Assembly: GCA_964016885.1 (NCBI GenBank)
Contig: OZ024760.1
Location: 7,068,001 to 7,132,000 of the forward strand
Length of the DNA stretch: 64,000 nt
Origin: Eledone cirrhosa
Lineage: Eukaryota
Reading direction: 5' to 3'
The notes beneath the pieces were generated by a model. It did no database searches. It saw only the letters and a program-made list of their open reading frames with translations, and was not told the origin of the DNA. Both the position numbers and the translations under genes were made by a program. How positions within the stretch are numbered: position 1 is the first letter of the stretch; every line of letters begins with the position of its first letter. Positions 2,981-60,326 of this stretch are shown in pieces.

Positions 2981-3025
2981 GCTTACAATGTTTCTTCCTT
3001 ATGTAACCGTAGGATTCGTCAGAGC
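2981..3025 (-). ncRNA. Type I minimal hammerhead ribozyme motif, family A
   Basis: Minus strand: gct CTGACGA a-tcct..agga-a GAA ACATTGT A agc; GUA cleavage triplet. Second copy at 60282-60326. Confidence 0.7.
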
Positions 3026-3074
3026 TATAAAAGGGGTTTGATTGGTGTTATGGACTCTATTAACCTAAGTATAT

Positions 3075-3671
3075 ATCATCATCATCATCATCACCGTTTT
3101 ACGTCCGTTCTTCCACGCTAGCATGGGTTAGACGGGTTGTCCTGTTGTGGGCAGTGTTTGGTCGGCTGACCATGCCTTGCTCATACAGGAACTGATCTGG
3201 CTTGATTTCTACAGCTGGATGCCCTTCCTAACACCAACCTCATTTACAGTGAGTGCTGGGTGCTTTTTCGTGGCGCCTACACGTCCACTTTACAGTGTGG
3301 GCTGGGTGCTTTTTTTTGCCGTGGCACCTCCACGACCACCTTGCGGTGGGGGCATATTGTTTATATGCTTCAGCATGTACCCATGGGAGGTCGGGTACTC
3401 TGTATTACTGCGTGTCGCCAGAAGTCACGGTCGTGTGTCATTGTCTTTGAGAGGTGTAATTGGGTAAGGTCGGCTTTTATCACCCCATCCCAGGTCATCT
3501 TGGGTCTCCCCACTCCGCGGTTTCCATCAACTTCTAGTGCTCTGCACCTTTTTATGCAGCTGTCATCCTTCATACGCATCACATGTCCATACCAGCGCAA
3601 CCGCCTCTCTTGCACACAGCATTTGATTCCTCTTATGCTCAGTCTCTCTCTCAATTCATTTATGCTTTGTC

Positions 3672-3672
<1 letters not shown>
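3075..3672 (-). mobile_element. 5'-truncated RTE LINE 3' end with (ATG)n tail
   Basis: ORF 3370-3654 ERRLRWYGHVMRM...GRPKMTW, then the shared 3' UTR (ctggatgcccttcctaacaccaacc on + strand) and a catcat tail. Confidence 0.85.
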
Positions 3673-3709
<37 letters not shown>

Positions 3710-3880
3710 CCCTTCCAGTTTCATTTCACATTATATACATGTCTGTGTATATTTTGATTATTCAAAAATTATTTTTAAGTGAACATGATTTAAAAAAAAT
3801 ATATTTTGAAGTGAACATGACCCAATGGGTCACGGGTGGTCTAGTAAATTAATTAAAATTAGAAATTCAGATATATAATA

Positions 3881-4068
3881 ATAATTTTCTACTTTAGGCA
3901 CAAGGCCAGCAATTACCCAGTGCATTACTGGTACTCTATTTTATCGACCCCCGTAAGGATGAAAGGCAAAGTCAACCTCAACGGGATTTGAACTCAGATC
4001 GTAAAGGGACGTAACTATGCTGGAAAGCATGGCGTCCAACCCTCTACCGATACTGCCAATCCACCACC
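3881..4068 (-). mobile_element. tRNA-related SINE (Nin-domain-like family)
   Basis: Reverse complement of the family at 42076-42265; B-box gagttcaaatcc and gcctttcatccttacggggtcgataaa segment. Confidence 0.8.
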
Positions 4069-5379
4069 CTATAATAATAATAATAATAATGAAATATTGT
4101 GTACAGTGCTCAGGTGCACTACAACTCATCAAAAAGTGTATGTATAGTAGATAGGGTAATGTACAAACGTCGGGCAAATGAACAGTGCATGAGTCATGAT
4201 ATACACATGTGTGCATGTGTAGGGAAGGGGTACATCAGGTGTAGTTATGGCGTATTTCGGGAAGCATGAGGGTTAAGGAAAATCCCAAAACAACAGATTT
4301 CTTTCTAAAGAAATAAGAGCTTCACCTTTGCTGGAGGGAAGATTCAAGAAGAAGATTATGTCCAGACACCATCATCATCATCATCATTGTTGTTGTTGTT
4401 GTTGACACCCTTTAAGGGATATCCGAAAACAACAGTGATTTCTTGTAAAGAAATAATTGTTTCATCTTCGATGGAGGGATGACTCAAGAAGGAGATTATG
4501 TCCATCCAGTCCAGTGATCAAACTAATCAATGACTTGATTAACATATGTGATCCTTCCATTCATTTCATTTGATTAATTTAATATTGAATGCCACTGAGA
4601 AAAGCAGCTTAACTCTTGTACTAATTTGTTCTTTATTTCCATTTAAGCCATTATTATGAATCTGGGTACATAAGGGTGGGGGATTGGCAGTAGAATCGGT
4701 AGGGCGTCAGTATATAGTTATGACCAGTTATCTTTGTGGTATGTAGTTATGACCAGTTATCTTCTGAGTTCAAATCCTGTTGAGGTGAGCTTTGCCTTTC
4801 ATCCTTCTGGAGAGGTCATCATCATCATCATCATCATCATCATCGTCGATTAACATCTATCTTCCAGGCTAGTATGGGTTAGATGGGTTTCTCCCATTTA
4901 GAAGCAAGTTGGATCGAGTGACCATGTCTTGCTCATATAGGAGAGTTTCTGGCTGGTTTTCCACGGCTGGATGCCCTTCCTAACACCAACCACAATGACA
5001 GTGTGTGTTGGGTACTTTTTGCCGCCTTTTACACATCCACTTTACAGTCTGGTGTTTTGAGGCTGGTTTTCTACGGTTGGATGCCCTTCCTAACGTTGAC
5101 ATTTACAGTGTGTGCTGGGTACTTTTTGTTGTGACACCTAATGTAATGCACTGGGTTCAATTTCATCGACTTTCTCCTCTCCCAAAATTATTGGCCTTGT
5201 GCCTAAATCATAAACCATTGTTTCTGGGTACATAGTGAAAGCACATGGGTACAACAGTTGGGTAGTTGGATGCACATGAACAGAGTTTCCTAGGTTGGTT
5301 TTCTGGACTGGGCAGTGTGTTGTGTTCTTGAGCAAGATTCTTTGTTTCCTCATAGAATTACAGTTGTTAACATTAAAAC

Positions 5380-6185
5380 ACTTTCTAACAGGATCTGTAG
5401 GGGCTGATATCATTAAGACATTATTTCTAACAGGATCTGTAGGGACAGCTCACATTAGAACACCATTTCTAACAGGATCTGTAGGGGCTGATATCACTAA
5501 GACACTATTTCTAACAGGATCTGTAGGGGCTGATATCATTAAGACACTATTTCTAACAGGATCTGTAGGGGCTGATATCATTAAGACACTATTTCTAACA
5601 GGATCTGTAGGGGCTGATATCATTAAGACACTATTTCTAACAGGATCTGTAGGGGCTGATATCATTAAGACACTATTTCTAACAGGATCTGTAGGGGCTG
5701 ATATCACTAAGACACTATTTCTAACAGGATCTGTAGGGACGGCTAACATTAGAACACCATTTCTAACAGGAACTGTAGGGGCTGATATCATTAAGACACT
5801 ATTTCTAACAGGATCTGTAGGGACGGCTAACATTAAGACACCATTTTTAACAGGAACTATAGGGGCTGATATCATTAAGACACCATTTTTAACAGGATCT
5901 GTAGGGGCTGATATCATTAAGACACCATTTCTAACAGGATCTGTAGGGACAGCTAACATTAGAACACCATTTCTAACAGGATCTGTAGGGGCTGATATCA
6001 TTAAGACACCATTTTTAACAGGAAATGTAGGGGCTGATATCATTAAGACACCATTTTTAACAGGATCTGTAGGGGCTGATATCACTAAGACACCATTTTT
6101 AACAGGATCTGTAGGGGCTGATATCACTAAGACACCATTTCTAACAGGACCTGTAGGGGCTGATATCATTAAGATACTGAATCTA
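5380..6185. repeat. 42-bp tandem minisatellite, about 19 copies
   Basis: Unit ctaacaggatctgtaggggctgatatcattaagacactattt with two interleaved variants; 14-aa period in the ORF track. Confidence 0.95.
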
Positions 6186-6904: not shown

Positions 6905-6947
6905 ACGATGTACTAGTTTCAAGCTTATTAGCTATCGTCAGCACCGT
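6905..6947 (-). ncRNA. Type I minimal hammerhead ribozyme motif, family B
   Basis: Minus strand: acggtg CTGACGA t-agct-aata-agct-t GAA ACTAGT A catcgt. Stem I 6 bp (one G-U), palindromic stem III, GUA triplet. Confidence 0.75.
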
Positions 6948-7066: not shown

Positions 7067-7166
7067 ATAAATGGAATAGAATGAAACGAAATTTCATTTC
7101 TCACTCTTAGTACGGCACTTACTTAAATGTAAGAGTGAGAAATGAAATTTCGTTTCATTCTATTCC

Positions 7167-7172
<6 letters not shown>
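7067..7172. repeat. Perfect 43-bp inverted repeat with 20-nt spacer abutting (TA)n
   Basis: 7067-7109 is the exact reverse complement of 7130-7172. Confidence 0.9.
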
Positions 7173-9265: not shown

Positions 9266-9449
9266 TTTGTTATCGTCATTACCATTAACCCCCCTCCCCA
9301 TCCCATCTCTTTTATTTTTCACTTTTACTTTCTATTTTTCCATTCTCTAGTTTTCACTTTGTAATTTCCTACTTTAACCTTCCCTTACTCCTCCTCGGAG
9401 TTCCTGTTTCCTCCCTCTCGGAGTTCCTGTTTCCTCCCCCTATCCAAAC

Positions 9450-9485
9450 TTGCCTGATGAAGGACTTCTCTCCGAAACGTTGTAA
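9450..9485 (+). ncRNA. Type I minimal hammerhead ribozyme motif, family C (classic Penelope pLTR-like)
   Basis: ttgc CTGATGA a-gga-cttctc-tcc GAA ACGT T gtaa; palindromic stem III, GUU triplet; preceded by a pyrimidine-rich tract. Confidence 0.65.
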
Positions 9486-9952
9486 CCTCCTCCACTTCCA
9501 CCAAGCATGAACCTAATATAACTGCACAATTGCCTCCTGTGTGTTGTTTGTTCATTTTCAATTTCATACGCACACACGCATACATACACACGCATACATA
9601 CACATGCATACATACACATGCATACATACACACGCATACATACACACGCATAGATACACACGCATAGATAGACACATACATACACACGCATACATACACA
9701 CACACATACATACACACACACACATACATACACACGCATACATACACACGCATACATACACACGCATACATACACACACATACATACACACGCATACATA
9801 CACACGCATACATACACACGCATAGATACAGACGCATACATACTCGCATACTTACACTCGCATACTTACACACGCATACTTACACACGCATATATACACA
9901 CGCATATATACACACATAGATACATACATACATTATATATATATATTATATA

Positions 9953-15229: not shown

Positions 15230-17160
15230 TCATCATCATCATTTAACGTCCATCTTCCACGCTAGTATGGGTTTGGACGAGAATTTTCCCACTTGAGGCA
15301 AGATTAGTTGTCTTGCTTGTATAGGACTGTCTGGCGGGTTTTCTACGGCTGGATGCCCTTCCTAACACCAACCACGTTTACAGTGTGGACTGGGAGGTTT
15401 TTACCGTGTTACCTACATGGCCACATTACAGTGTGGACTGTGTTTTTTTGTTGTGACACCTACATGACCTCATTTGTTCAGGACTGGATGTTGTGGTACC
15501 AACATAACTTTACATCGAAAGGGGTGGTGTGGATGGGGTGGGGGTAGTGGGGATGGGGTGGGGGTAGTGGGACGGGGGTGTATTTTTGTTAAGAGGTGCC
15601 TACTGACTAGGTTTCGCTTTGTACTTAGGCAAGGTGGGTCTTCTGTATTACTGCGTAGCGCCAAAGATCTCGGTCTAGTGACATTGTCTTGGAAAGGTGT
15701 GTGTGAGGTCGGAATTTATCAAATCATCCCAGGTTTTTCTGGGTCTGCCTACTCTGTAACTACCATCAATTTTGATTGCCCTGCACTTTTTTATACAGCT
15801 GTCGTCTTTCATGCGCATCATGTGACCATACCAACGTAGTCTTCTCTCGAGTAAACAGAATCTGATCCCTCTTTCTCCTAATTTCTCATTTAGTTCATTT
15901 ATGCTTTGCCGTTCACGTATATTACTATTACACATCCAACGGAGCATGCAAGCTTCATTCCTCTCCAGTCTGCGTATATCCTCTGGACACAATGCCCATG
16001 TCTCACTGCCATGTAACATTGCTGTTCGTATACAAGCATCATACAGCCTGCCTTTCATTTTTAGAGAGAAACCTTTAGCGGCCAATAGTGGTATAAGCTC
16101 TCTGAACTTTTTCCATCCCGTTCTGACTCTAGCTACAGTACTTTCAGAGCACCCTCCACCACTGCTGATTTTGTCACCCAGGTAACGGAAGCTGTCCACT
16201 ATTTCTATAGAACCATCTGTGCAATTGAAAGAGCTAGTATTCAGTGGGCACTTGCTGCTACTTATTGCACCAGAGCATCGGCCACATATAAAATCTATAT
16301 TCTTAGTTAGCTTACCTGTGATCCCACTACATCTTTTATGAACCCATATTTTGCATTTGTGACATAAAATGGAGTTTCTGCCTACTCCTTTCCTACACAC
16401 TGAGCATGGCCATTTCCCAGATGGGACCAGTGCCCTATTTTCTTTCCTACATACTAGAACTTTAGTCTTAGACAGGTTAATTTTAAGGCCTTTTGATTCT
16501 AGGCCATGCTTCCATGTTTGGAATTTCTTCTCTAGTTCAGCCATTGATTCAGCTATGAGCGTTAGATCATCTGCGTATAGGAGTTCCCATGGGCAGCTGG
16601 TCTTGAACTCCTCTGTTATAGCCTGAAGGGCAATAATAAATAGGAGGGGGATAAGGACGGAGCCCTGATGAACACCAACTTTTACGTTAAACTCTTCACT
16701 ATATTCGTTGTTAATTCTAACCTTACTGACTGTTTCTTTATACATGGCTTGTATAGCTCTCACAAGCCATTCATCAACACCTAGTTTTCTGAGAGCCCAC
16801 CAGATAATGGGGCATGGGACTCTGTCAAAGGCTTTCTCCAAGTCAACAAAAGCTAAGTATAGGGGTTTACTTTTAGCTAGGTACTTCTCCTGTAGTTGTC
16901 GTACAATGAAAAGAGCGTCTGTGGTACTTTTACTTGACACAAACCCGAACTGCATTTCATCTAGATCAATTCGCTCTCTGATTAGTTGCGCTATTACTTT
17001 TTCTGTGACCTTCATGACCGTGTCAATTAATTTAATGCCTCTATAGTTTCCCCTATCTAGGGTATCTCCTTTACCCTTGTAGCAGTTAATGATGCTGCTG
17101 CTATGCCAGTCCTTCAGTACAATCCCATTCTGTATGACTTGGTTTACTATGTGAAAGCAC
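15230..17160 (-). mobile_element. 5'-truncated RTE-clade LINE with stop-free reverse transcriptase region
   Basis: ORF 15675-17162: NYRGIKL, QFGF, FVDLEKAFD, GVHQGSVL, LYADD, YLG, plus an inserted Cys/His cluster (CSVC..C..C..HKRC..C..C). Followed by the 3' UTR and (ATG)n tail. Confidence 0.92.
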
Positions 17161-17639
17161 ATAGCCTAGTGGTTAGAGCATTGAACTTGCAATTGTGAAA
17201 TTGTAAGTTCAATTCTTGAAGCGGGTGGTGCGTTATGTCCTTGAGCAAGACACTTTATTTCATGTTACTTCAGTCTACTCAGCTGTATTGGTCATTGCCT
17301 TTCCTTTGGACACCTTCATATAGTGTATATATAATGTGTATATATAGTGTATGTTATAGTTCATATATAATGTGTATATACAGTCTATATATTAGTTTTG
17401 ACATTAATGGTGCCAAGCTGTATCTGCCTTTGGTTTTCCCTTGGTGTAAGAGGTTTATCTGGGATTTCTTGGAGGAATTTGTCCAAAGACTTTTAATTTT
17501 ATGGGGTGTGTTTCTGTTTTAATGTGTTTTGGTGTAATGTTAGAGAGTGGGACGGGACCAATTGTGCTGTAATGTTATTATGAGATGTAAGTTGGATTTT
17601 TGTTGTGAGTGGATAGCACGGGCCCCAAGCATTAAGTGT

Positions 17640-37358: not shown

Positions 37359-37445
37359 ATGATCTTAAGTACACAGGCCCTTGGATATACTGTTGTATGT
37401 GCCCCATATACGAAATCTAATGCTCAAAATCCTAAAGAAATGAGA
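37359..37445 (+). CDS. Elovl2/5: Fatty acid elongase, coding exon 3
   Basis: ttccag| MILSTQALGYTVVCAPYTKSNAQNPKEMR |gtaagt; 87 nt, phases 0/0; contains the ELOVL luminal GY..C.P...EMR segment. Confidence 0.92.
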
Positions 37446-38451: not shown

Positions 38452-39394
38452 GTAAGTATTACTAACACTACTACTACTTCAATGCTTTAATTAACACTTT
38501 TCCTATCAAATCCTTGCTTCTATGGCACAAAGCTCTCTTTTAAAGTGTTGGTATTTCTCTAAATGACTTGCAAATCTATTTTCCATGCTTGCATGGGTTA
38601 GACAGGCTCTCACATTATGAAGCCAGACAAGTTGGGTGAGGTGATCATGTTTGGCTAATGCAATCCATTTTGGGGTCTGGTTTCCTACAGCTGGATGCCA
38701 TTCCTAATGCCAACCCCTAGTCTTCATTAAGACATCTCTCTAGGGGAAGGTCACTCTGATATAAAGCCTGCAACTTTGTTTGTATCCAATGATGTAGGCC
38801 AGTTCTTCTTTTTGGGGTAAATGCATTTGATGTTCAAAGAGTGGAACCTTTCCTCACTTAAAAAAGTTTCAAGCACAGGTATCACTTGATATGTGACATC
38901 TTTTGTGATGCATGGTATTGCTGGTGATAGGCAAGTCCCCAGCAGGATTAAAAGCCACGTCCGTGGTATTCATGCTTAAGTACCAAGTTGTGGCATTACA
39001 CAAAATCAAGTTGCAGCCATCATCTAGATAAGTGTTAGGAAATCTCTCCCATACACTTGGTGGAATGTGAGACCGTACGTAAGCGAGACACAGATTCCTG
39101 GCCAGTCTGGGAGATCAGTGTCTCTGCTTCACTACTAACTTGGTCGGTGTTGACATGTCAACCCTTGCTAGCAAGGAAAGCAGATATTAAAATGACAATG
39201 ATGATGATATATATAAACACAGTTTAACTTATGCCAAAACCTCCAAAAGAGGGGGAAGATGTTTCATATTTTAATGACAAAAATTTTCATTTTTTTCTTT
39301 TGGTTCTACATACATACATAAATACATACACATTTATACATATAATAATAAATATGTATGGATATATATGCATATGTATAACTATGTATACATT

Positions 39395-39693
39395 GAGGAT
39401 GAAAAACTCAGAGCTGTACGGGAGCCTCCCAAAAGTCAACTCAAAAGTGACACAGAGGAGACTGAGGTTAGCTGGACCTGCTCACCGACATCCAGAGTTG
39501 ACATTGCACTCGGTGCTCCTGTGGGAGCCCCCTACATGGACACACTGGAAGAGGAAGACCAAGGTTAACGTATGTTGATGCCCTAAGGACAGACACTGGT
39601 CTGTTGGAGACGCAGGACATGGCAGTGATAATGAGGGACAGAGACCGCTGGAGAGAACTCGTCCATGGATCTCGGGAATTTTACCCGCCCTAG
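39395..39693 (+). mobile_element. Short RTE-type LINE 3' fragment
   Basis: RRLRLAG..HRHPEL...GRPRLTY; copies at 43170-43436, 48830-49983 and 11335-11425. Confidence 0.75.
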
Positions 39694-39912
39694 AATATAT
39701 ATATATTGTGTGTATGTATATATATATGTGTATATATATATTGTGTGTATGTATATATATATATGTATATATATATTGTGTGTGTGTATATATATATATG
39801 TATATATAGTTTTATATATGTGTGTATATATATGTATATATATGTGTGTGTGTGTATATATATGTGTGTGTGTGTATATATATATGTATGTGTGTGTGTA
39901 TATATATATGTA

Positions 39913-39963
<51 letters not shown>

Positions 39964-40082
39964 ATATATGTGTGTGTGTGTGTATATATGTGTGTGTGTA
40001 TATATATGTGTATATATGTGTGTGTGTGTATATATATGTGTGTGTGTGTGTATATATATATGTATATATATGTGTGTGTGTG

Positions 40083-40137
<55 letters not shown>

Positions 40138-40270
40138 ATATATATGTGTGTGTGTATATATATATGTGTGTGTGTATATATATATGTGTGTGTGTATATA
40201 TATGTGTGTGTGTGTATATATGTATATATATGTGTGTGTGTGTATATATATGTATATATATGTGTGTGTG

Positions 40271-40301
<31 letters not shown>

Positions 40302-40334
40302 ATATATGTATATATATGTATATATAGTTATAAC

Positions 40335-40395
<61 letters not shown>

Positions 40396-40473
40396 ATATA
40401 TATGTATGTATGTATATAAGCTCCACATGTGTGCTCACATATAAATATTACATTATATTTTCCTTTGTTTCAG

Positions 40474-40598
40474 CTTGGTTTGGTGCTTGTTTAAACTGCT
40501 TTATCCATGTAGTAATGTACACATATTATGGCCTGTCTGCTATACCATCTTTAAAAAAGAAACTCTGGTGGAAAAAGTACATTACTAAATTGCAGCTG
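40474..40598 (+). CDS. Elovl2/5: Fatty acid elongase, coding exon 5
   Basis: ttcag| (T)[41 protein letters not shown] |gtatgt; NxxxHxxMYxYY and WWKKYIT motifs; 125 nt. Confidence 0.97.
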
Positions 40599-42075
40599 GT
40601 ATGTCTATCTATATATATATATCTATCTATTACTCACTTTGTTGTTCCTAAGTCCATTAATGTTGTAGATTTGTTATTTAAACCAGCCGTGGATGGTTTG
40701 GCAGTATCGGTAGAGTCGGACGCCATGCTTTCCAGCATAGTTACGTCCCTTTACGGTCTGAGTTCAAATCCCACCGAGGTTCACTTTGCCTTTCATCCTT
40801 ATGGGGTCGATAAAATAAAGTACCTGTAATGCACTGGGTAATTGATGGCCTTGTGCCAAAAGTAGAAACAGTTATTTAAACCAGCCATATCTGACCAGAA
40901 TACTCTCACATCTTTCTGTTAAAACCAGCCAGAACTGGCTGCTCATACTGATGTTAAGGTATTGTTCTCAAAATAGACAATATTAAAATCTCATAGATTC
41001 GATATCATGTGAGATAATTATGCCTTTACTGCGAAAATACAATAGTAAATATAGAGTAATGTAAAGGATAAAGGGGAGTTGATTGGCAGAATCGGTAGAG
41101 TGTCAGACAAAATGCTTTGTTGCACAGTTACAACCCTTTACATTCTGAGTTCCAATCCTGCAGAGGTTAACTTTGCCTTTCATCTTTACGAGGTCAATAA
41201 AATAAAGTACCAGTAATGCACTGGGGTTGATTTAATTGACTTTCTCCTCCCCTTCAAATTAATGGTCTTATGCCTAAAGTAGAAACAATTATTTAAAGGG
41301 TGGTGGCTTGGCAGAATTGGTAGAGCATCAGACACCATGCTTAGCGGCATACTTACAGCCCTTTGCATTCTGAGTTCAAATCCTGCTGAGGTTAACTTAG
41401 CCCTTCATCCTTACGGGGCCGATAATGCATTGAAGTTGACTTTCCCTTTCCCAAATATTGTTGGCCTTGTGCCTAAATCAGAAACCATTGTTTAAATGGT
41501 CTGAGTCCTTGCACTTGTACAATATCTCGGTCTGGCTGTCTGTATATATTTATTACTCAATTCGATTTTTGTGCCAACCCTTACCTATGGTCATGAATTT
41601 GGGGTAATGACCAAAAGAATACAATCGTGAATACAAGTGGCCGAAATGGGATTCCTCTGAAGGGTTTTTGGAGTAACGTTACTCGTTAAAGTGCATAGTT
41701 TGGAGATCAGAGAGACACTCCAGGTAGAGCCAGTATTTCTCTGAATTGAGAGATCACAGCTCCGATACTATGGGCATGTGGTTAGAATATCTCAGGGAAA
41801 GAATCGGTGGACAGATTTTACGGGCAAAACCAACCGACAGGGGACCCAGGGGTAGACTCCAAGGAAGATGGTTGGATAACATCCATAAGCTTGGCTGGTC
41901 ATGCTTGGGGGGATCCAGCCAGATCAGTTTGAGATGGTTGCTTCTGACAGGACTTGCTGGAGGGAGTGTTTGAGGACTCTGCCCCCATGACCCTCACAGG
42001 AATAAGTGGGCAAAGAAGAAGACTCTGTTGTTCCTAAGTTCTATAATGTTTTAGATTTATTATTTATTACATTCA

Positions 42076-42265
42076 GGTGGTGGATTGGCAGTATCGGTAG
42101 AGGGTCGGACGCCATGCTTTCCAGCATAGTTACGTCCCTTTACGATCTGAGTTCAAATCCCGCCGAGGTTGACTTTGCCTTTCATCCTTACGGGGTCGAT
42201 AAAATAAAGTACCAGTAATGCACTGGGTAATTGCTGGCCTTGTGCCTAAAGTAGAAACAATTATT
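42076..42265 (+). mobile_element. tRNA-related SINE (Nin-domain-like family), representative copy
   Basis: Many near-identical copies, e.g. 40688-40875, 56778-56968, 58432-58800 (minus, tandem) and 62455-62690. Confidence 0.8.
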
Positions 42266-42417
42266 TATTACATTCTTACACTATCCTGGATTTATTTACA
42301 CCACGGATTACACCTTGGGTGAACGGGTTCGTTCTATTTGTGGATTGTAGAAACACATTGAGCTTGAGAAATGTTTTTGGCATAACTTTACCAATTTTGA
42401 TCTGTCAAGTAATTACT

Positions 42418-42471
<54 letters not shown>

Positions 42472-42638
42472 TATATATATAATGGAACAAAGAATGAGTG
42501 TTACATCATATACATATTTAATTACATATTACATATGTTTCACTGTAGATCAGCTCAAGGAACGATCGATTAATAATTGATCCTGACTCTGGAATCGGAA
42601 GTTCCACAGATATGTGTTCACATGTAGACTCGCATCTA

Positions 42639-42704
<66 letters not shown>

Positions 42705-42765
42705 CCCAAGGCTCTGATACCATCAACACTATACACACAGAGCTGGCATATCTAAGAACTGACTA

Positions 42766-42821
42766 ACTGCCTGATGAGGTCATAGCCATTCAATGGCTAT
42801 CATCGAAATATATATAGCAGT
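42766..42821 (+). ncRNA. Type I hammerhead ribozyme motif, family D, sense within Elovl intron 5
   Basis: actgc CTGATGA ggt-c-atagccat-tca-atggctat-c-atc GAA ATATATAT A gcagt. Perfect 5-bp stem I; AUA triplet, predicted cut after 42816. Confidence 0.8.
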
Positions 42822-43136
42822 AAATAAAGGATTATGAGTTCATGCAATTGACTTATGTTTCGTCACTATATATATATATATATATAACTTGTCCGTCTAA
42901 CCCATGCTAGCGTGGAAGAACGGACGTAAAACGGTGATGATGATGATGATATATATCCGGATTAAACTAGTCAGACTGTTATTCAACAGAGTGGTCGATA
43001 TTTGGGATTAGTAGATAGTTGTCGAAATGGCAGTTTAATAACCAGGTGGTGGTGGTTTATTTATTGTGAAAGCTCTTTCACCACACATTCTATGACCACC
43101 TCGGTGACTAATTTGTGACGTTGTGTGTTGTATATC

Positions 43137-43170
<34 letters not shown>

Positions 43171-43451
43171 CCCAAAAGTCAGCTCAAAAGTGACACACAG
43201 GAGACTGAGGTTAGCTGGACATGCTCACCGACATCCAGAGTTGACATTGCACTCAGTGCTCCTTTGGGAGCCCCTACATGGACACACTGGAAGAGGAAGA
43301 CCAAGGTTAACGTATGTTGATGCCCTAAGGACAGACACTGGTCTGTTGGAGACGCAGGACATGGCAGCGATAATGAGGGACAGAGACCGCTGGAGAGAAC
43401 TCATCCATGGATCTCGGGAATTTTACCTGCCTTAGAATAGAATAGAATAGA

Positions 43452-43482
<31 letters not shown>

Positions 43483-43523
43483 CATAATATATAAGAACAA
43501 AAGATGGTTAAAGGAGTTCCATG

Positions 43524-43594
43524 TATTTTATTATGCGCATTTCAAAAACAAATATCATCATGCAATAATATTTGTGTTTTCATCAGATAAAACA
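43524..43594 (-). ncRNA. Type I hammerhead ribozyme motif, family E
   Basis: Minus strand: tgttttat CTGATGA aaa-c-acaaatattatt-gcat-gatgatatttgt-t-ttt GAA ATGCGCAT A ataaaata. 8-bp stem I and perfectly palindromic stem III. Confidence 0.8.
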
Positions 43595-44039
43595 GGACGA
43601 CATGATATGAAGGCTAAAAAACACCCGTGGATAGTTCAGTTTAAAATCAACATATGAGAAGTAGTTTTAGATTGATGTGTGATATTGGGGAAAAAAATAT
43701 TTTATTTAGAGGGGGTGGGGGGTGGAAAGGATGAAAAAAAGAGATGAGAGTGAAGGTGGAGAGGGAGGAGTATAATGAGGAAGGATGAGATAGGAGGAGA
43801 GATGGGTGATAGAGAGAGAGAGATAGTTTTTATAACTGAGAAAGATATATTGTTTTACATAGAGAGGTTGAAAACCGTTGGAAGATAATGTATAAATAAA
43901 AAGTATACATATATTATGTATACTCCAGTCCTACAAACTGTAGAGTGCTTCTTATCCGATATCTGCATTGCTTTATTGTACTACAATAAAACTCACCTCC
44001 TACATATATATATATTTATATTTGTTTTTTTTTTTTCAG

Positions 44040-44336
44040 ATCCAGTTCTGTGTAACATTTGTCCACTCTGCCAATTCTATACGAGTGAAGTGTGACTTCC
44101 CAAGCTGGGGCAAATATCTGCTCACATCTTACATGATCCTCATGATCATACTGTTTAGCAACTTCTACATCCAGGCCTACATTAAGGGCAGACGGAACCC
44201 CAATGCAGCTGCTGCAGCAGCAGCGGCAGCAGCAGCAGCAGCCCCAGTAGACAAAACAGCAAATAACTATGGTAAAAAAAAGAAAGCCTCTCACAATGGC
44301 AGCGCTGTTAATGGAACTGTGAAAAAAGCTCAATAG
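44040..44336 (+). CDS. Elovl2/5: Fatty acid elongase, coding exon 6 (last)
   Basis: ttttcag| IQFCVTF...LFSNFYIQAY...A13...VKKAQ*. LFxNFY motif and C-terminal KKxx ER-retrieval signal. The six exons total 933 nt (310 aa plus stop). Confidence 0.96.
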   Translation: MQFCVTFVHSANSIRVKCDFPSWGKYLLTSYMILMIILFSNFYIQAYIKGRRNPNAAAAAAAAAAAAAPVDKTANNYGKKKKASHNGSAVNGTVKKAQ

Positions 44337-50508: not shown

Positions 50509-52457
50509 TTTCTCTTTCTCTTAATTTCGAGTATATTTTTTTGACCGGCCACCTTCCTGGTGGCAAGGTTGTAAAAGAAGAGAAATTGTCATCCCTTGAA
50601 TCGCAAGAATGTTTTGCATATTTTGAAGGTGCCAGCTATCGCAGCCATTTGTAGACTATGAATTAGGGAGCTGCGCTTTTTGTCCGCAAATCCAAGTTCG
50701 GTCATACTTTGGTCCAAGCGGGTTGGTATATAACCCGTAGCACCAATAATGATGGGTATGAAGCTAAAGGTGTATCTTGGATACTGGATTTGTAAACTCC
50801 TCATCAATGGTCCGTAGATGTCCTCCTTCTCCTGTATTTTTCTGACAACGTTTACATCAAGTGGGCAGCTGATCTCCACAACAGAACACGTTTTCAATGT
50901 GTGGTCCCAAACTACAATATCAGGCCGGTTGTGCTTTAATTTGGTGGCAGTTTTTATTTTCAGGTTCCACCAGTATTCCTTAGTGCCATCTGTCTCAATA
51001 TATTCTTCCTCGTTTGTTGTTAATTTTGTTTTCCGAAGTGCGTTCCAGATAGTTCTAGCTATCCCATCGTGTCTCATGGGGAGGTAGTAGCGAGATGACA
51101 TTCTTTCGCAGCTGGCAACAATGTGGCTTACATCCTCGATCTTTGTTTTACATAGCCTACATTTATTGTCAGCTGCTGGCCCTCCTCTTTTGTGCAGCAG
51201 ATATTTGGTAGGGAGTTCTTGTTCCTGTATTGCATAGAGATATCCCTCAAGGTGTGATGTCATAAACTTGTCGGAACTCCATGCCAGGCTTTTTGAGTGG
51301 TTTATCCCCTCTATGGTCTGTGTTTTACGCCTCAAGTATCCATGCACAACTTTCTCTGTAAATTGGTCAATTTTTTTTTCTTGTTTGAACATTGAATAGG
51401 ATCTTCCGATTTCTCTGGGTGAGAGATTTATATCAGGCTTTATTCCATATCTCTCCTCCAGATCAGTCGCTATTCTAATGATATTTCTTTTTTCATGCTC
51501 ATAAACCTGAGCAAGATGGTCGCCAACCTTTTTCCTCTGTTGAAGGTGTTGCTTCAGTGTTACTATCCGGGTCTCATATGTTGTTAATATTGATTTTAGA
51601 CCCCGGCCACCTTCCTTGCGTGAGAAGTATAGCCTATCCACATCACCATTGATGTTAAAGTTCCCAGTAACACTGAGAAGTTTACGAGTTCTAACATCCA
51701 TCTCACTTAGTTCTTGCAATGTACTGACAAGCTATCACCCTGAAAGATGCCCCTCTGGTAATGTATCCTATCGGTCTTAACCTGCTCCTTCTCACCTCTA
51801 AGGATCAAATTGGTGTACCAGTTCTTGGTCAGGCGTTCAACAGCAGCTACTAATGGTTGTGGGACTTTAGCTAACTGTAAAGCCTTAATAATCCACCCAT
51901 GAGGTACACTATCAAATGCTTTTTGATAGTCCAGCCACACGACAGTCATGTTTCTGCGATTCTTTGTTGTTTTTTCCTGAATCATTTTGTTAGTTAGTAG
52001 GTGATCTATGCAACCCCACACCTCCCTCTTTCCACCAGCTTGCTCAGGTGTTATGATGTTGTTGGTAGCACAGTGATCCTGTAAGAACAGGTTAAGGCAC
52101 CCAGTATATAATTTATACATGATGTTTTGGCAGGCAATTGGGCGGTAATTTTTAGCAAGGGTGGTTTGGCTATTTTTGGGAATGAGGAGAGTAGTGGCAG
52201 TTGATAACCATCTGGGCAGTTCTTGTGTGCCCTTAATGGTTTCTGTAAACAGCCGTATGAGATCTTGCCGATAGAAAGTGAAATTCTTCAACCAGTATCC
52301 TGTAATGAGGTCTGGGCCTGGCGATTTCCTATTCGACATTTTCTGTAGAGCTGTTTCCAGTATTGACCCATCTATGTCATATTGTTTTGTCTGGACATGT
52401 TGGCAGTAGTCCTGTTCCAGTTGTTTTAGCCAATTAGCTTGTCTGTTGAATCCGTCT
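50507..52457 (-). mobile_element. R4/Dong-like non-LTR retrotransposon with restriction-like endonuclease; 5'-truncated and internally deleted
   Basis: RT motifs KSPGPD, NYRPIAC, WLDYQKAFDSVPH, GIFQGDSLS; then RLY..RKEGGRGL, CRLC..H..C zinc knuckle, RHD, PD..D and E RLE motifs. The YxDD segment is missing at about 51720. Flanked by (TATG)n. Confidence 0.85.
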
Positions 52458-52920
52458 GTATGTATGTATGTATGTATGTATGTATGTATGTATGTATGTA
52501 TGTATATATATGTGTATGTATGTATGTATATATATATATGTGTATGTATGTATGTGTATGTATGTATATTCTAAACCACCCAATTTAGAATAGGTAGGTA
52601 CACTGTATCCCTCTCTGTTATAAGAAGCAACTAAAAGGTTAGTGTTCAGGATGGGCATCTGGCTGTAAAACATTGCCTCACAAAGTCCTATCCAACCCAT
52701 GCCAGCATAGTTAGTGAGAAAGTTAGTGAAAGAAGAATGTTTGTGAGGGGATACTGATATATGTAAAAAATAATGAAAAGTTCAGTCATGCAAAGAAATG
52801 TGCGTGGGGAATTTCATATAATATACACACGTATTTCTCTGGAAAATGATTTGCCTATTCACCCAAAGCGACTTCACTTTTTATTAGGACTTCTGCAATA
52901 ATTGGTGAACATATGACGAA

Positions 52921-52993: not shown

Positions 52994-53013
52994 TATATAT
53001 ATATATATATATA

Positions 53014-53116
53014 TAGGAAAAGAGTCAGAACCCTGACGGCTGAGCTCTGGCTGTTTCGACAGCTGTCGAAATATTCGAAGCTCAGTCAGATGTCGGGTGT
53101 CCTGACTCTTTTCCTA
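53014..53116. repeat. Imperfect palindrome, family H
   Basis: taggaaaagagtcag ... tttcgacagctgtcgaaa ... ctgactcttttccta. Confidence 0.8.
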
Positions 53117-53960
53117 TTACCCACTCTACTACCCTAAGTATTGAGTACTCTGGTGCCTTGTGCCAAACGCTCTCTTACTGCATTAAGTGTGGCAGAAACT
53201 CGAGTACAGATATAAATTTATGGTACCTATTTATGGTATCAAGGCAAATAACTTTGTGTCTACTCTGGGATTTATACATAACCTTACCTATTGAGTACGC
53301 TGGGAAACCTTATGCTAGTCCTGTTTACTTATTATATATATATATATGACAGTCAATCAACAAGATCCCAGACCTCATTCGAGTCGGGTGAAGCTCGTCA
53401 AATCGGACCAAGGAAACAATGTTTCCATTGGTCTTTCCAATTGCTGATACTATTATATCTACTGGTTGCAAATCCAGGTAGAAGAAGCAAGTGAAATAAA
53501 GTGTCTTGCTCAAGGACATAACACATCGCCCGGTCTGGGAATCAAGCTCACAACGTCACAATTGTAAATCCAATTCTCAAACCACTCAGCCACGCGCCTT
53601 CACTAAATATATCATCATCATGTCTATCTTCCATGCTAGCATGGGTTAGACCGGAATTGTCCCACACGAGGCTAGATTGATCGGGTGGCTGTGTCTCGCT
53701 CGTTTAGGACTGTATCTGGCAGGTTTTCTACGGCTGGATGCCCTTCCTAACACCAACCACATTTACAGTGTGAACTGGGAGACTTTTTACCGTCTCTCCT
53801 CCACGATATTAATATATTAATATACGTCTAGAGCGTTCATCAGACAGATGTTATGAATAGAAAATATGAAATGAGATTTAAAATCTGTTAAAAATTGGAA
53901 GTGAGGCTGGAAAAAATATATAAAAAAGATTATATAACAATTCATATTTTCTATTTATAA

Positions 53961-54026
53961 CATCTCTGATGAACGATCTAGACGTATATTAATACTGTCT
54001 GGGATCCTGAAACCTTTGGTAATGGA
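53961..54026 (+). ncRNA. Hammerhead motif, family F, probably damaged
   Basis: CTGATGA, long imperfect stem II, GAA ACCTTTGGT A atgga. Stem I needs tctgt, which is present in the inverted partial copy at 53837-53848 but 2 nt shorter here. Confidence 0.5.
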
Positions 54027-54815
54027 GTAGTTATATATTGTGTTGTTCACTTTCTACTTAAATAGCTCTGTTCTATACATAGAGCACTCTTTTTTTCCTT
54101 TGCTTTTTCTTCGGAATTACCTAACACACACACACATATATACAGCCACAAATAACTAAAAAAAAAGCAGATGAGTGAGCGGAGAGATGGAGGTGGGGGG
54201 TGAAAAGAAGGAAGAAGAGAGCGAGAGTGAAGTTGAGGAGGGGTATGGGAGCGGAGTGATATCTGAACTCAATTCCTCAGAGAATGTAGGACGACCAACG
54301 CCAACAGTTGATTACACTATACACAAAAGCTGTCTCTTTTAATAATAACCCCCATTGTTATGCAAATATAATATAATTGAAGCGTTTGTCTGTCTTTTGT
54401 TTCCAGTGTTCACGTTTAAAGTAATAAAAACAAAATAAAAAAATAAAGAGACAAGCATAATAACAATTTAAAAAAAAAGCCCACTAGCCATGTCTGTCGT
54501 AAATGAAGATGTTAAAACGATGTTAGCGGCTAAACTGTTACTTTCTAAACACCTATTCTAGCATAACATGACAGGTCTTGCACCTGAAATAAACCTAGTC
54601 GTTAGATAATGATACTGATAGAGGGTGTTTTTTTTTTTCTCGAAGCATGTAGGAGAATCGTGAGAGCCAGAAGCAGCAAAGACAGTGTAATGTGTGTATA
54701 TATATATAAGGGTTAAAATACTGGAGCGTGTTGGAGTTAAACACGCTCTTCGTATTATAGAAATGACAGTAAAAGCTATAGCTCAATGTAGTTAAACAGA
54801 GCCGAAGAAATATAT

Positions 54816-54846
<31 letters not shown>

Positions 54847-54887
54847 CGATATTAAACAAATGGAAACTATATTTATAAAACCATATT

Positions 54888-54953
54888 TATTTCGTTATAT
54901 ATATTTCTGGGATATCATATTAAAAATATGTTATGCCTTCCTCAGACAAAATA
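54888..54953 (-). ncRNA. Type I hammerhead motif, family G
   Basis: tattttgt CTGAGGA aggcata..tatccca GAA ATATATAT A acgaaata. Confidence 0.7.
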
Positions 54954-55190
54954 CAATACATAAGCTGTTTTATAAATAATTAGTGACATACCTTGTGATA
55001 AGGTATGATTATATTATATTAATGATTATATATATATATATATAAAAGCATGAGAAGAAAGAAGAATACTGCGTGGTTGCACATGGGTTACATATGATAA
55101 AATTAGTCCCTCGTCAGTGATTTGCCAACCATCATTGATATTTCATCGCATTAAAAATCATATATATATATATATGTGTGTATATATATG

Positions 55191-55226
<36 letters not shown>

Positions 55227-55617
55227 AAAGAGTATGACCCCGACGGCAGAGCTCAAGCCGTTTCGACGGCTATTTCTGGACTAAATCTAAATTAGAACTT
55301 TTAGCCTAGTGAATAAATATCCGAACTTGTCAAGGGGGTACTTCCTTATATGGGAAGATTGTAGTTGTCAAGAGGATTGGTTAAAATTTGTTGTAAACAC
55401 GAATAAGTCTATCATGGCATTTGGTGAGAGGTAGGGGTGGCTGAACTTGCCTTGTAGAGCAATAGGGGAGTGAGTGTATAGAACAGCTATTTAATTAGAA
55501 AGTGAACATAATATATAACTACTCCATTACCAAAGGTTTCTGGATCTCAGACAATATTGTCTAGGAGTCCTGAAACCTTTGGTAATGGAATAGCTATATA
55601 TTGTGTTGTTCACTTTC

Positions 55618-55660
<43 letters not shown>

Positions 55661-55699
55661 GATATTAATAAATGGAAACTATATTTATAAAAACATATT

Positions 55700-55764
55700 T
55701 ATTTCATTATACATATTTCAGGGATACCAAATTAAATTATGGTATGCCTTCATCAGACAAAATA
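55700..55764 (-). ncRNA. Type I hammerhead motif, family G (left arm)
   Basis: Reverse complement of 55889-55953. Confidence 0.72.
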
Positions 55765-55888
55765 CAATATATAACAGTTTTACAAATAAGCTTTGACGTA
55801 CCCTTTTAAAACCTGGATGACTTCCAAAAATAATGGTTGCATTTTAAAAGGGTACGTCAAAGCTTATTTGTAAAACTGTTATATATTG

Positions 55889-55953
55889 TATTTTGTCTGA
55901 TGAAGGCATACCATAATTTAATTTGGTATCCCTGAAATATGTATAATGAAATA
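55889..55953 (+). ncRNA. Type I hammerhead motif, family G (right arm)
   Basis: tattttgt CTGATGA agg-c-atacca..tggtat-c-cct GAA ATATGTAT A atgaaata. Confidence 0.72.
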
Positions 55954-56084
55954 AATATGGTTTTATAAATATAGTTTCCATTTATTAATATCGTATATCT
56001 ACTCCAAAAACTTGTCGAGTGCTTTATATCAGTTATAAAAATATTTACTTGTTGTATCCCAACAATTTTAAATAGAACTTTTGC

Positions 56085-56139
<55 letters not shown>

Positions 56140-56271: not shown

Positions 56272-56338
56272 AGCGAATTTCCGACCGTTAGGTTGATTTC
56301 CATGCGTAGGTATGTCATTATTTATAAAATAAATTTTG

Positions 56339-56403
56339 TATTTTATCTGATGAAAGCGCACCAAGGTTTGCTTGGTCGCCCTTGAAATATATATAATAAA
56401 ATA
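56339..56403 (+). ncRNA. Type I hammerhead motif, family G (diverged copy)
   Basis: tattttat CTGATGA aag-c-gc-accaag-gtttg-cttggt-c-gc-c-ctt GAA ATATATAT A ataaaata; perfect 8-bp stem I. Confidence 0.78.
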
Positions 56404-56980
56404 AATATGGTTTTATAAATATAGTTTCCATTCATTATTATCTTGGAATTCGGGGTTGATAAAATAAAGTACCAGTAATGCACTGGAAGATTGCTAGCCT
56501 TGTGCCTAAAGTAGAAACAATTATTATCTTGGAATTCAAATTCCGCCGGGGTTAACTTTGCCTTTCATCCTTACAGGGTCGATAAAATAAAGTACCAGTA
56601 ATGCACTGGAATAATTGCTGGCCTTGTGCCAAATGTAGAAACAATTATTATCTTGGGATATTTACTCCAGTAATCTATTGAGTGCTCTATATCAGTTATA
56701 AACATTTATGTTTGTCGGAACTCCAACAAATTAAATATAACCTCTACACACACACACACACACACATATATTACATGTGGCGGTGGATTGGCAGTATTGG
56801 TAGAGGGTCGGACGCCATGCTTTGACGCATAGAGTTACGGCCCTTGCCATTCTGAGTTCAAATCCCGCCGAGGTTAACTTTGCCTTTCATCCTTACGGGA
56901 TCGATAAAATAAAGTACCAGTAATGCACTGGGTAATTGCTGGCCTTGTGCCTAACGTAGAAACAATTATATATATATATA

Positions 56981-57100
56981 TAGGAACAAGTATGACCCCG
57001 ACGGCAGAGCTCAAGCCGTTTCGACGGCTAATTCTGGTCTAGTCCAGAATTAGCCGTCGAAACAGCTTGAGCTCTGCCGTCGGATTCATACTTGTTCCTA
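56981..57100. repeat. Near-perfect 120-bp palindrome, family H
   Basis: taggaacaagtatga...gacggctaattctgg / ccagaattagccgtc...tcatacttgttccta. Confidence 0.9.
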
Positions 57101-57178
57101 TTACCCACTCTACTACCCTAAGTATTGAGTACTTTGGTGCGTTATGGTCCATCTGGTTCCTTACCACATTTCCTTCGT

Positions 57179-57889: not shown

Positions 57890-58130
57890 ATAAATCTTGT
57901 TATCCTACATTGAGCTAAAACCACACTGTCATACCAAGGGCAATATATCTGCGCGTCTGGGCACATTGATATACTTGTCAACGAAACTATATATATATAT
58001 GCAAAAGTTCTATTTAAATTGTTGGGATACAACAAGCAAATATTTTTATAACTGATATAAAGCACTCAACAAGTATTTGGAGTAAACATACGATATTAAC
58101 AAATGGAAACTATATTTATAAAACCATATT

Positions 58131-58195
58131 TATTTCATTATACATATTTCAAGGACACCAAGTTAAATTATGGTGTGCTTTCATCAGATAAAATA
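58131..58195 (-). ncRNA. Type I hammerhead motif, family G (left arm)
   Basis: Reverse complement of 58309-58373. Confidence 0.75.
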
Positions 58196-58308
58196 TAATA
58201 TAGAGCAGTTTTATAAATAAATATTGATACTATCTGGGAGCTTCCAACAGTAATGGTTGCATTTTTTAAGGGTATGTCAATATTTATTTATAAAACTGAT
58301 CTATATTA

Positions 58309-58373
58309 TATTTTATCTGATGAAAGCACACCATAATTTAACTTGGTGTCCTTGAAATATGTATAATGAAATA
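58309..58373 (+). ncRNA. Type I hammerhead motif, family G (right arm)
   Basis: tattttat CTGATGA aag-c-acacca..tggtgt-c-ctt GAA ATATGTAT A atgaaata; two compensatory stem II changes relative to the 55889 copy. Confidence 0.75.
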
Positions 58374-59634
58374 AATATGGTTTTATAAATATAGTTTCCA
58401 TTTGTTAATATCGTATATATATATATAGTAATATTTGTTTCTACTTTGGGCACAAGGCCAGCAATTACCCCAGTGCATTACTGGTACTTTATTTTATCGA
58501 CCCCCCCGTAAGGATGAAAGGCAAAGTTAACCACGGCGGGATTTGAACTCAGATCATAAAGGGACGTAACTATGCTGGAAAGCATGGCGTCCGACCCTCA
58601 ACCGATACTGCCATATATAATTGTTTCTACTTTAGGCACAAGGTCAGCAATTACCTAGTGTATTACTGGTACTTTATTTTATCGACCCCGTAAGGATGAA
58701 AGGCAAAGTCAACCTCGGCGGGATTTGAACTCAGATCGTAAAGGGACATAGCTATGCTGGAAAGTATAGCGCCCGACCCTCTACCGATACTGCCAATCCA
58801 CATATAATGATTTCTGATTTAGGCACAAGGTCAACAAATAAAAAACGGACCCCCCCCCCCCTAAATACCCCCCCCCCCCCCCAAAAAAAAACGGGCCCCC
58901 GAATAAAAAACGGACCCCCACCCCCACCCGACCCCTAAATAAATAACGGACCCACCCCCACCCCACTTCCAAATAAAAAACGGACCCCACCGCCACCCTA
59001 AATAAAATAAATTATTGAATGGTAAGGAAAAAGGTCTTTTATGGTGTCTAGTCGACAGCTGGTGAAAGGGACAGTCACCCCCACACCCCACCCCCACATA
59101 CACGGAACGTCAAGTGTGGAATGCTTGCTCTCATATATTATCTACTGGAGTTATCTCCCTGTCCTGGACATATAACGAAAGGAATTGCCATATTGGAACC
59201 GGCTCTGGTTCTATGACACAAAACCAACCGTTTTAAAGTACTTCTATTTAAATCAAAATCTTTCATCATAATTACGCCCCCCCCCCCCCACAAAATAAAT
59301 AAATAAATAAGTAAAAAAACTAAAAAAAACTTGTAACTTAGGTTACAAATGATAATGAAATAATAATTCCAGTAAATCTCTCTAAATTTTTCCATGAATT
59401 AATTGATTTTAGTGTATTTAATTGGAAATATAATATGGAAAAGCTTAGTCGGAATTTTAAAACACACAAGGTTTTTATATATATGAGAATTTCTTGTATT
59501 TAATATTTTAGTGTGTAGGACGTTGCTTTCTTTATTTAGAGAAAATGTTTTTTCGTCTACTACCACTATACATATAAGAGTTGTCTCCCTCACAACGTAA
59601 GCCTTATTACGTTTGAGTGTGTGTATATATAATC

Positions 59635-59875
59635 CATTACCATCCTCCGGGGAAACGCCTTCTCCATTCTGTCCGGCGGGGCCGTGAGGCGGCCAGCACG
59701 TGGGGCCCCATTTACTCATAATACAGAGAGATGGGGGGAGGGTGATAGAGATGGAAGCGATGACAGTGGGAGTTCGGCTCTTCCGTGTTCGGACCTGGTG
59801 TGCAGTGTCAGTTGTCCGTAGGGAGGTAGTGGTTTGTACTTAGCGAAGGTTTTTAGAACCTTGTGTTAGTAAGTA
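59635..59875. promoter_or_regulatory. GC/CpG-rich island, candidate promoter or first exon(s)
   Basis: Unique GC-rich patch in an AT-rich background, with CACGTG at 59697-59702 and outward-facing donors (minus ATG|gtaatg at 59640, plus |gtaagt at 59869). Confidence 0.4.
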
Positions 59876-60177
59876 TTGTAAGATTTTCCTGTTATCAACT
59901 TCATGAAGGATTGTAAGATCTTCTCCCCTCTTAATGAGGTTGTAAACAGAAACGTACGGTTATATATATAATATATATATATAAAGGATCGATCGACTTT
60001 CGTCAAATCGGACCGACCAACAATGTTTCCGTTGGTCTTTCCAGTTGCTAGTACTATCTATCGGTCGCAACTCCAGGTAGAAGTAGAAGGAGCAACGTGA
60101 AATAAAGTGTCTTGCTCAAGGACATAACACATCGCCCGGTCCAGGATCGAACTCACAACCTCAAGATTGTGAATCTA

Positions 60178-60235
<58 letters not shown>

Positions 60236-60281
60236 GATAAAGAACACAAGAGCGTCTACAACATCAAACATTTTTTTATTG

Positions 60282-60326
60282 GCTTACAATGTTTCTTCCT
60301 TACGTAACCGTAGGATTCTTCAGAGC
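60282..60326 (-). ncRNA. Type I minimal hammerhead motif, family A, second copy
   Basis: gct CTGAAGA a-tcctacg-gtta-cgt-a-agga-a GAA ACATTGT A agc. Within the core it differs from the 2981 copy only at the free N7 position. Confidence 0.72.

Follow-up and report, generated by a model that had tools for sequence, protein, structure and literature searches.

The 64-kb stretch of the Eledone cirrhosa genome analysed here (contig OZ024760.1, positions 7,068,001 to 7,132,000; hereafter the window) has a GC content of 38%, is rich in (TA)n and other tandem repeats, and contains 13 type I hammerhead ribozyme motifs. An initial annotation had assigned these motifs to about seven families of short ribozyme-bearing retroelements. 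We find that ten of the 13 are very probably hammerheads in the pseudo-long terminal repeats (pLTRs) of four families of Hydra-clade Penelope-like elements (PLEs), whose copies are 5′-truncated, often inverted and inserted in (TA)n; another likely derives from a Neptune-type PLE, for one no parent was found, and one belongs to a retrozyme that was likely inserted by a Penelope-type enzyme. Family searches were made in the 2,996-Mb genome, and comparisons with published systems refer to the portions of the cited papers that were consulted. The features are as follows, with clades as assigned by motif below.

2938..3068, minus strand: family C, 5′-truncated 3′ end of a Hydra-clade PLE, ending at the first 3′ site in (TA)n
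~2973-3033, minus strand: family C hammerhead, predicted cleavage after 2984 (GUA); piece 95% identical to full-length copy L211
6704..7133, minus strand: family D, non-coding tandem retrozyme, roughly a single monomer, ending at site 1 in (TA)n
6905-6947, minus strand: family D hammerhead, predicted cleavage after 6911 (GUA)
7130..7170, plus strand: inverted arm of the D insertion, a tail piece to site 2, then (TA)n
9270..9561, plus strand: family E, old 3′ end of a likely Neptune-type PLE; pyrimidine-rich untranslated region (UTR), then hammerhead
9450-9485, plus strand: family E minimal hammerhead, predicted cleavage after 9481 (GUU)
42702..42866, plus strand: family F, young Hydra-clade PLE represented by its 3′ end, with a hammerhead at 42766-42821 (AUA); sense, in the last ELOVL intron
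43490..43906, minus strand: family G, Hydra-clade PLE 3′ end with a hammerhead at 43524-43594 (AUA) whose stem II is very long
43909..44003, plus strand: inverted arm of the G insertion, consisting of the ~90-nt tail
53806..53915, minus strand: family B left inverted arm; only the 5′ half of the core (CUGAUGA at 53843), breaking off in stem II
53930..54125, plus strand: family B right arm; damaged hammerhead 53960-54027 (GUA; stem I broken), plus tail
54845..54992, minus strand: family A, single 3′ end; hammerhead 54888-54953 (N7 = G)
55475..55620, no strand assigned: short remnant of family B, inverted, in which two hammerheads are reduced to their 3′ halves; outside the 13
55652..55811, minus strand: tailless left arm of the first family A inverted pair, with a hammerhead at 55700-55764
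55815..56085, plus strand: right arm of the first family A inverted pair, with a hammerhead at 55889-55953 and a tail of ~85 nt
56318..56741, plus strand: family A copy; hammerhead 56339-56403; tail restarts at 56642 past another inserted repeat
57995..58227, minus strand: tailed left arm of the second family A inverted pair, with a hammerhead at 58131-58195
58240..58421, plus strand: tailless right arm of the second family A inverted pair, with a hammerhead at 58309-58373
60235..60497, minus strand: family C, Hydra-clade PLE 3′ end with a hammerhead at ~60274-60334 that is predicted to cleave after 60285

Hammerhead motifs of the window

All 13 CUGANGA...GAAA...UH motifs were recovered at the positions and on the strands of the initial annotation. 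A strict descriptor finds nine of them, against a mean of 0.08 (maximum 2) in 200 dinucleotide shuffles; a relaxed descriptor, adjusted once the sites had been seen, finds 12 and no extra sites, against a mean of 0.035 (maximum 2) in 200 shuffles. These 12 have the type I core with helices I–III. The thirteenth, at 53961, had been called damaged and has indeed lost its stem I pairing, and relatives of this copy are intact there. The core position N7 is U, C, A or G and the cleavage triplets are GUA, AUA and GUU, as described before. The motifs fall into seven repeat families (six in A, two in C, one each in B, D, E, F and G) and represent only 11 insertions, as those at 55700/55889 and at 58131/58309 are each the two arms of a single inverted insertion. 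The window 3′ ends that were examined are followed by (TA)n or by a tract in which (TA) and (CA) are mixed.

Conservation of the core extends beyond the window. For family A we collected 96 distinct copies by their 3′ flank motif, 93 with a locatable 3′ core and 86 with a 5′ core, and each 5′ core position is intact in 84-86 of the 86; N7 is U in 61 of these copies, A in 11, G in 10 and C in four. In 52 distinct family A hammerheads 94.2% of stem cells are paired. The stems covary in this family, as stated earlier: 50 cells are altered on both sides, compared with 14.6 in shuffles (none of 500 as high), and three stem II pairs alternate, G-C with A-U or U-A with C-G. The number of covarying pairs (four) does not exceed that in shuffles, 401 of 500 of which reach it, and the copies are mutually related.

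Rfam returned no match on the window at its gathering score. Among the 150 of 173 weak matches that were listed there was no hammerhead family, most being microRNA-family hits on AT microsatellites. The 13 motifs are confirmed as sequences, 12 of them with the full fold, with self-cleavage a prediction. Helix III self-duplexes are predicted to fold in all seven families and, because the helix III loops are of 2-3 nt or palindromic, the hammerheads would be expected to cleave mainly as dimers or with help from protein.

On the minus strand at 59580-59660, 3′ of a pyrimidine-rich tract, lies a decayed hammerhead-like string (CCGGAGGA ... CAAACGUA), possibly a fourteenth, dead PLE end of a further family.

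Parent elements and their clades

A tblastn search of the 64-kb window found no piece of a PLE open reading frame (ORF), in agreement with the initial annotation, which had noted that no Penelope reverse transcriptase (RT)/GIY-YIG ORF is present. Elsewhere in the genome the families are more complete. A 31-nt pattern of family A has 28,997 exact matches (its reversed control has none), and an ORF encoding RT and GIY-YIG was found in the stretches between widely spaced inverted matches. A protein search gave 101,301 candidates, of which 77 were scored, many with long open frames. The full-length layout is a pLTR with hammerhead, ~210 nt, an ATG, an ORF of ~742 residues, a 3′ UTR of 1-1.8 kb and a second pLTR; such pLTR-ORF-pLTR units of 3.5-4.2 kb are present at loci L213, L214 and L227, and the 742-residue ORF is unbroken in L108/L215. 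Aligned with the pLTR region of one such full-length copy, the family A pieces of the window show 82-99% identity. Family C has the same organization in L211 (4.9 kb) and L212 (5.6 kb), with a hammerhead flanking the ORF on both sides, and its endonuclease is found upstream in L222-L224. For family G, a GIY-YIG domain lies ~1 kb upstream on the same strand in six of 25 loci. For family F, one lies ~1.15 kb upstream in six of 20 loci selected for a longer 5′ side and in all five widened loci, and upstream RT pieces were found together with the endonuclease. A 5′ pLTR was seen for A and C, and none for F or G. Since the longer copies of A, C, F and G carry their own RT/GIY-YIG ORF upstream, the window pieces that have none are autonomous elements shortened at the 5′ end in the ordinary way, and the link to PLEs made in the initial annotation was right.

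In families A, C and G the RT motifs (QxDI, MGxxDS, YRDD) and the GIY-YIG motifs lie within a single ORF. All four families have the CxCx5C linker and CxxC and CxH around the conserved E and N, the absence of a CCHH motif being judged by eye. The RT contains RWR and DKT in family A, RWH and DKT in family C, and DKT in family G, whose N-terminus lies outside the sequence seen; RW-type and DKT motifs were not seen in the pieces of family F. Craig et al. 2021 (PMC8557442) define the Hydra clade by RW[K/R/H], DKT, CxCx5C, CxxC-E and N-CxH, and on these motifs we assign A, C, F and G to this clade. The elements resemble those of the clade, including Hydra-1_Obim of Octopus bimaculoides, in several respects: a single ORF has the GIY-YIG domain at its C-terminus, the pLTR contains a hammerhead, insertions target (TA)n, and copies show truncation of the 5′ side, an inverted 5′ copy and a tail at one end only. 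They differ in their 1-2 kb 3′ UTRs, in tails of 85-95 nt compared with the 30-40 nt described for PLEs, in a stem II of up to ~15 bp, and in the co-existence of at least four young families, one with ~29,000 exact matches. Hydra-1_Obim is listed with a hammerhead and (TA)n targets in the consulted portion of that paper, and the motif given there matches none of the seven hammerheads here.

Family E is older, with 86-94% identity to its other copies. A decayed CCHH-type GIY-YIG lies upstream on the same strand in three of 15 longer loci, and the family resembles Neptune-clade PLEs in a minimal hammerhead, (TA)n targets and what appear to be the cysteine linker and CCHH-type GIY-YIG; only decayed copies were seen. 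It is likely to be an old Neptune-type end, the clade being read from motifs. Compared with the minimal PLE hammerheads of Cervera and de la Pena 2014 (PMC4209133), the motifs here have the same type I fold, with a short palindromic helix III and a long helix II; only that of family E is strictly minimal, with an extra base after A9, whereas A, F, G and C retain a short helix III stem.

Several observations count against these assignments. The Hydra-clade assignment is based on motifs and not on phylogeny. The Pfam GIY-YIG model gives only E-values of 0.0045-0.0054, below its cut-off, for two family C proteins, and RVT_1 matches none of the PLE proteins scanned. Units of 3.5-5.6 kb are longer than the "<3 kb, generally" given for the clade, a descriptive trait rather than a strict criterion. 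The loci from DNA searches are top-scoring copies and not a random sample. Finally, no parent ORF could be linked to family B in 25 loci and 26 wider stretches (eight widened, 18 of 6.5 kb); PLE ORF pieces near B copies were rejected as its parent because they lie on the other strand, are distant, or are inconsistent between loci.

The wider protein family is common. A search of 50% cluster representatives gave 14,166 matches at E<=0.001, the best at 40% identity and unnamed, and a PDB sequence search found no solved relative (best E 0.27). It was already known that hammerheads occur at the ends of PLEs by the thousand per genome, that single motifs come from truncated PLEs, and that opposite-strand pairs lie 100-700 bp apart, with low activity and a need for dimers (PMC4209133, the consulted portion of which names no cephalopods); an Octopus Hydra PLE hammerhead has been known since 2021. 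Recently active Penelope families have been reported in O. vulgaris, in a source whose consulted text contains neither "ribozyme" nor "Hydra", and 235 Rfam hammerheads have been reported in giant squid. Most of the window motifs are what autonomous PLEs of known clades would be expected to leave behind, and the initial description of the elements as probably uncatalogued does not hold at the level of kinds (Hydra and Neptune clades, non-LTR retrozymes); the particular families may be new. The Hydra clade, hitherto a set of few short families, here appears as a large, recent, multi-family expansion that Rfam and Pfam miss.

ORF pieces of further Hydra-type and Neptune-type PLE families are present at L045, L051, L078, L174, L242 and L263, which means that the genome has more PLE families than the seven of the window. 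Hammerhead variants related to those of A and F, with other stem II sequences, occur in L039 near 1267 (minus strand) and in L150 near 2470 (plus strand), which suggests additional subfamilies.

Insertion junctions and the tandem family D

The insertions share an anatomy across families. The first 100 matches of family A include 25 cases of neighbours within 5 kb, 20 of which are divergent, at distances of 136-3714 nt. Downstream of the hammerhead, families A, B, C, D and G each have two fixed 3′ end sites, 85-95 nt apart in A, C and G; family F showed just the first of these sites, plus a single run-on copy. The 3′ ends abut (TA)n in the fetched loci as they do in the window. From 66 inverted pairs we dropped 15 (nine at a locus edge, six running into an ORF or the next monomer), and 48 of the 51 classifiable pairs carry the tail between the two sites on exactly one arm (A 21/21, C 6/6, F 1/1, D 10/11, B 10/12; G was viewed by eye only and left unclassified). 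In the window the one-sided tail is visible in D, G, B (53806-54125) and both A pairs. At each end site the continuation of the element starts with TA-rich letters. The first site is closely followed by an inverted RCUC...GAGY motif in five families (A, B, C, F and G), two of which (A and C) repeat it after the second site. Craig et al. (PMC8557442) describe inverted 5′ copies with a one-sided tail as a PLE signature, and Frangieh et al. 2024 trace such tails to two internal start sites of reverse transcription.

These junctions suggest the following pathway. The RT/GIY-YIG protein would bind an RNA longer than one unit and nick (TA)n DNA, and reverse transcription would begin inside the RNA, 3′ of the hammerhead, at either of two sites 55-95 nt apart. 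Synthesis would mostly stop early. The opposite end would come from another cDNA, in inverted orientation, that is primed at the site not used by the first. The TA-rich letters of the start sites may pair with the nicked target, and the RCUC...GAGY hairpin after the first site (A, B, C, F, G) may position the protein. The pairing step is at odds with the in vitro behaviour of an Anolis PLE, which starts at sites without homology to the cut DNA (Frangieh et al. 2024). The same study finds the hammerhead of its element to be protein-assisted and dispensable for insertion in vitro; here the hammerheads would process precursor RNA rather than set the insertion ends. Most genomic copies are likely to be inert.

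Family D differs from the other families in its organization. Its hammerhead has 15,032 exact matches in the genome, and its unit of about 440-490 nt (array periods 440-488 nt, 34-38% GC, strongly self-paired) forms head-to-tail arrays of up to ~12 units, in two of which the longest ATG ORF is 73-139 residues. On these features D belongs to the animal non-LTR retrozymes (Cervera and de la Pena 2020, PMC7229834; Li, Clavereau and Pollet 2026, 10.64898/2026.07.22.740005), which likewise are non-coding and head-to-tail, have one type I hammerhead per unit and co-exist with PLEs; a circular RNA form is predicted. The monomer exceeds the 170-400 nt of the former study and lies within the 51-972 of the latter. 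Families A, C, F and G, in contrast, are not short non-coding tandem units and extend into kilobase ORFs. Hammerhead-less non-autonomous elements with pLTRs and head-to-tail copies have been described from Chlamys (PMC8557442).

The ends of D insertions are of PLE type. They lie at two fixed sites ~230 and ~290 nt past the cleavage site and not at the cleavage site itself; a hand count over 30 matches in genome order gave 10 ends at site 1, eight at site 2 and two earlier, with the other 10 running on into the next monomer. The tail of ~56 nt is on one arm only in 10 of 11 inverted pairs, two of which (L184, L185) are a single duplicated locus. Such tails and inversions at insertion ends were not found among reported retrozyme features in the consulted portions of the retrozyme papers. 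D was likely inserted by a Penelope-type enzyme. Monomers differ by 0.14-0.17% within arrays compared with 1.45% between two arrays of one subfamily. This near-identity fits a circular monomer or dimer copied repeatedly, and equally fits local duplication. In the former case, multimeric transcripts would be cleaved to monomers of 440-490 nt, or to circles of that size, and arrays would arise as the enzyme went round such a template more than once.

We give about even odds to the reading in which the two fixed internal 3′ ends, one-sided tail, 5′ inversions, (TA)n targets and near-identical arrays of D record rolling copying of a circular ribozyme RNA by a Penelope RT/GIY-YIG enzyme from an internal start. 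Its strongest competitor, less probable yet a serious one, is that the arrays are satellites that grew locally by unequal crossing-over, starting from single units that a PLE inserted or from linear multimeric transcripts, with no circular RNA template. The repeated three-unit length pattern in L290 and the alternation of two variants in a third array (L226) are as local duplication would give, and Li et al. 2026 (10.64898/2026.07.22.740005) propose local amplification. However, the arrays are dispersed and have PLE-type ends, and in L291 the single inverted arm carries the private variants of its array. Counting against insertion by a Penelope-type enzyme, D shows no clear RCUC...GAGY hairpin and has a shorter tail (~56 nt), features that tie it to no particular driver. 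Its hammerhead shares U at both stem II ends and an ACU-AGU helix III with many Hydra-clade motifs in File S2 of Craig et al., which may be a hint to the origin of D.

Mobilisation of retrozymes by PLEs was proposed by Cervera and de la Pena 2020 (PMC7229834), and Li, Clavereau and Pollet 2026 (10.64898/2026.07.22.740005) support the idea with co-occurrence data and trees of pLTRs; family D adds evidence at the level of junctions and names the RNA sites. We found no such evidence (tails, inversions, internal starts) in print for a hammerhead retrozyme, in a search whose coverage excluded most subscription literature, Repbase and the supplements of the 2026 preprint. If rolling copying is correct, D would be direct genomic evidence of a Penelope enzyme copying circular ribozyme RNA. 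Hydra-clade ORFs without breaks occur in this genome too, as does a conserved hairpin by the start sites, so the partnership could be rebuilt in vitro.

Other traces were uninformative or set aside. Private changes show no A>G excess over T>C, the mark of adenosine-to-inosine editing, in any of five families (p 0.09-0.92), and the A/G differences in one D array fall in a (TA)n tract. A 478-nt wrap-round D contig in a sequencing run of unspecified kind was not used, as a DNA tandem array gives the same contig. The D arrays at L290 2700-8830 and L291 890-4130 directly adjoin 3′ ends of A and F elements, likely as nested insertions into one (TA)n tract.

Alternative origins and neighbouring features

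The initial annotation had read all or most of the families as short non-autonomous ribozyme retroelements moved in trans. This view drew on the absence of a PLE ORF from the window, which for a single 64-kb window says nothing on mobilisation in trans; D is non-coding, no parent was found for B in the loci examined, and many F copies share a 5′ start point, 19 of 25 loci being without the longer upstream stretch. The shared start, however, sits on an ATATGTC stretch that resembles the (TA)n target, and six of the 25 copies extend past it. We accordingly rejected F as a fixed 165-nt short interspersed element, its longer copies leading to a GIY-YIG. For A, C, F and G, which continue into their own ORFs, movement in trans is refuted. 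As an account of most families the view is improbable: it stands for D (one motif) and possibly for B (one), whose copies form inverted, one-tailed pairs like the other families, and it falls for A, C, F and G (ten) and likely for E (one).

Use of the motifs by the host as present-day regulatory ribozymes is less probable still. One example would be F in the ELOVL elongase gene, whose four 3′ exons in the window span 33990-44336 on the plus strand (~33990-34180, 38283-38430, 40470-40607 and 44040-44336, the last two confirmed by Pfam ELO). The last ELOVL intron contains F on the sense strand and G antisense, with the tail arm of G stopping ~35 nt before the last exon. The F copy, however, is 100% identical to dozens of dispersed copies, which indicates a recent insertion, and its helix III would need a dimer. 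Least credible of all are DNA transposons of the miniature inverted-repeat type whose terminal repeats happen to contain hammerheads: 55652-56001 and 58083-58421 are TA-flanked inverted repeats of 98-99% identity, but this origin is refuted by an arm spacing that varies from 136 to 3714 nt, an interior that is the same RT element in truncated form, and a one-sided tail.

Short, often inverted repeats of another family with a GC-rich hairpin, inserted in (TA)n and frequent in the fetched loci, lie at 53000-53070, 55222-55295 and 56980-57101, and are likely the ends of another PLE family, in which no hammerhead was noticed.

Two other retroelement fragments lie on the minus strand. That at 50589-52570 is from a non-LTR retrotransposon with RVT_1, zf-RVT and a restriction-like endonuclease motif, which we take to be Dong/R4-like. 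The other, at 15675-17165, is a 496-residue RT fragment with an inserted PHD finger and relatives in many fetched loci, presumably from an RTE-like long interspersed element. Tandem short repeats of yet another family occupy 56443-56641 and 58430-58837, one set splitting the tail of the A copy at 56339.

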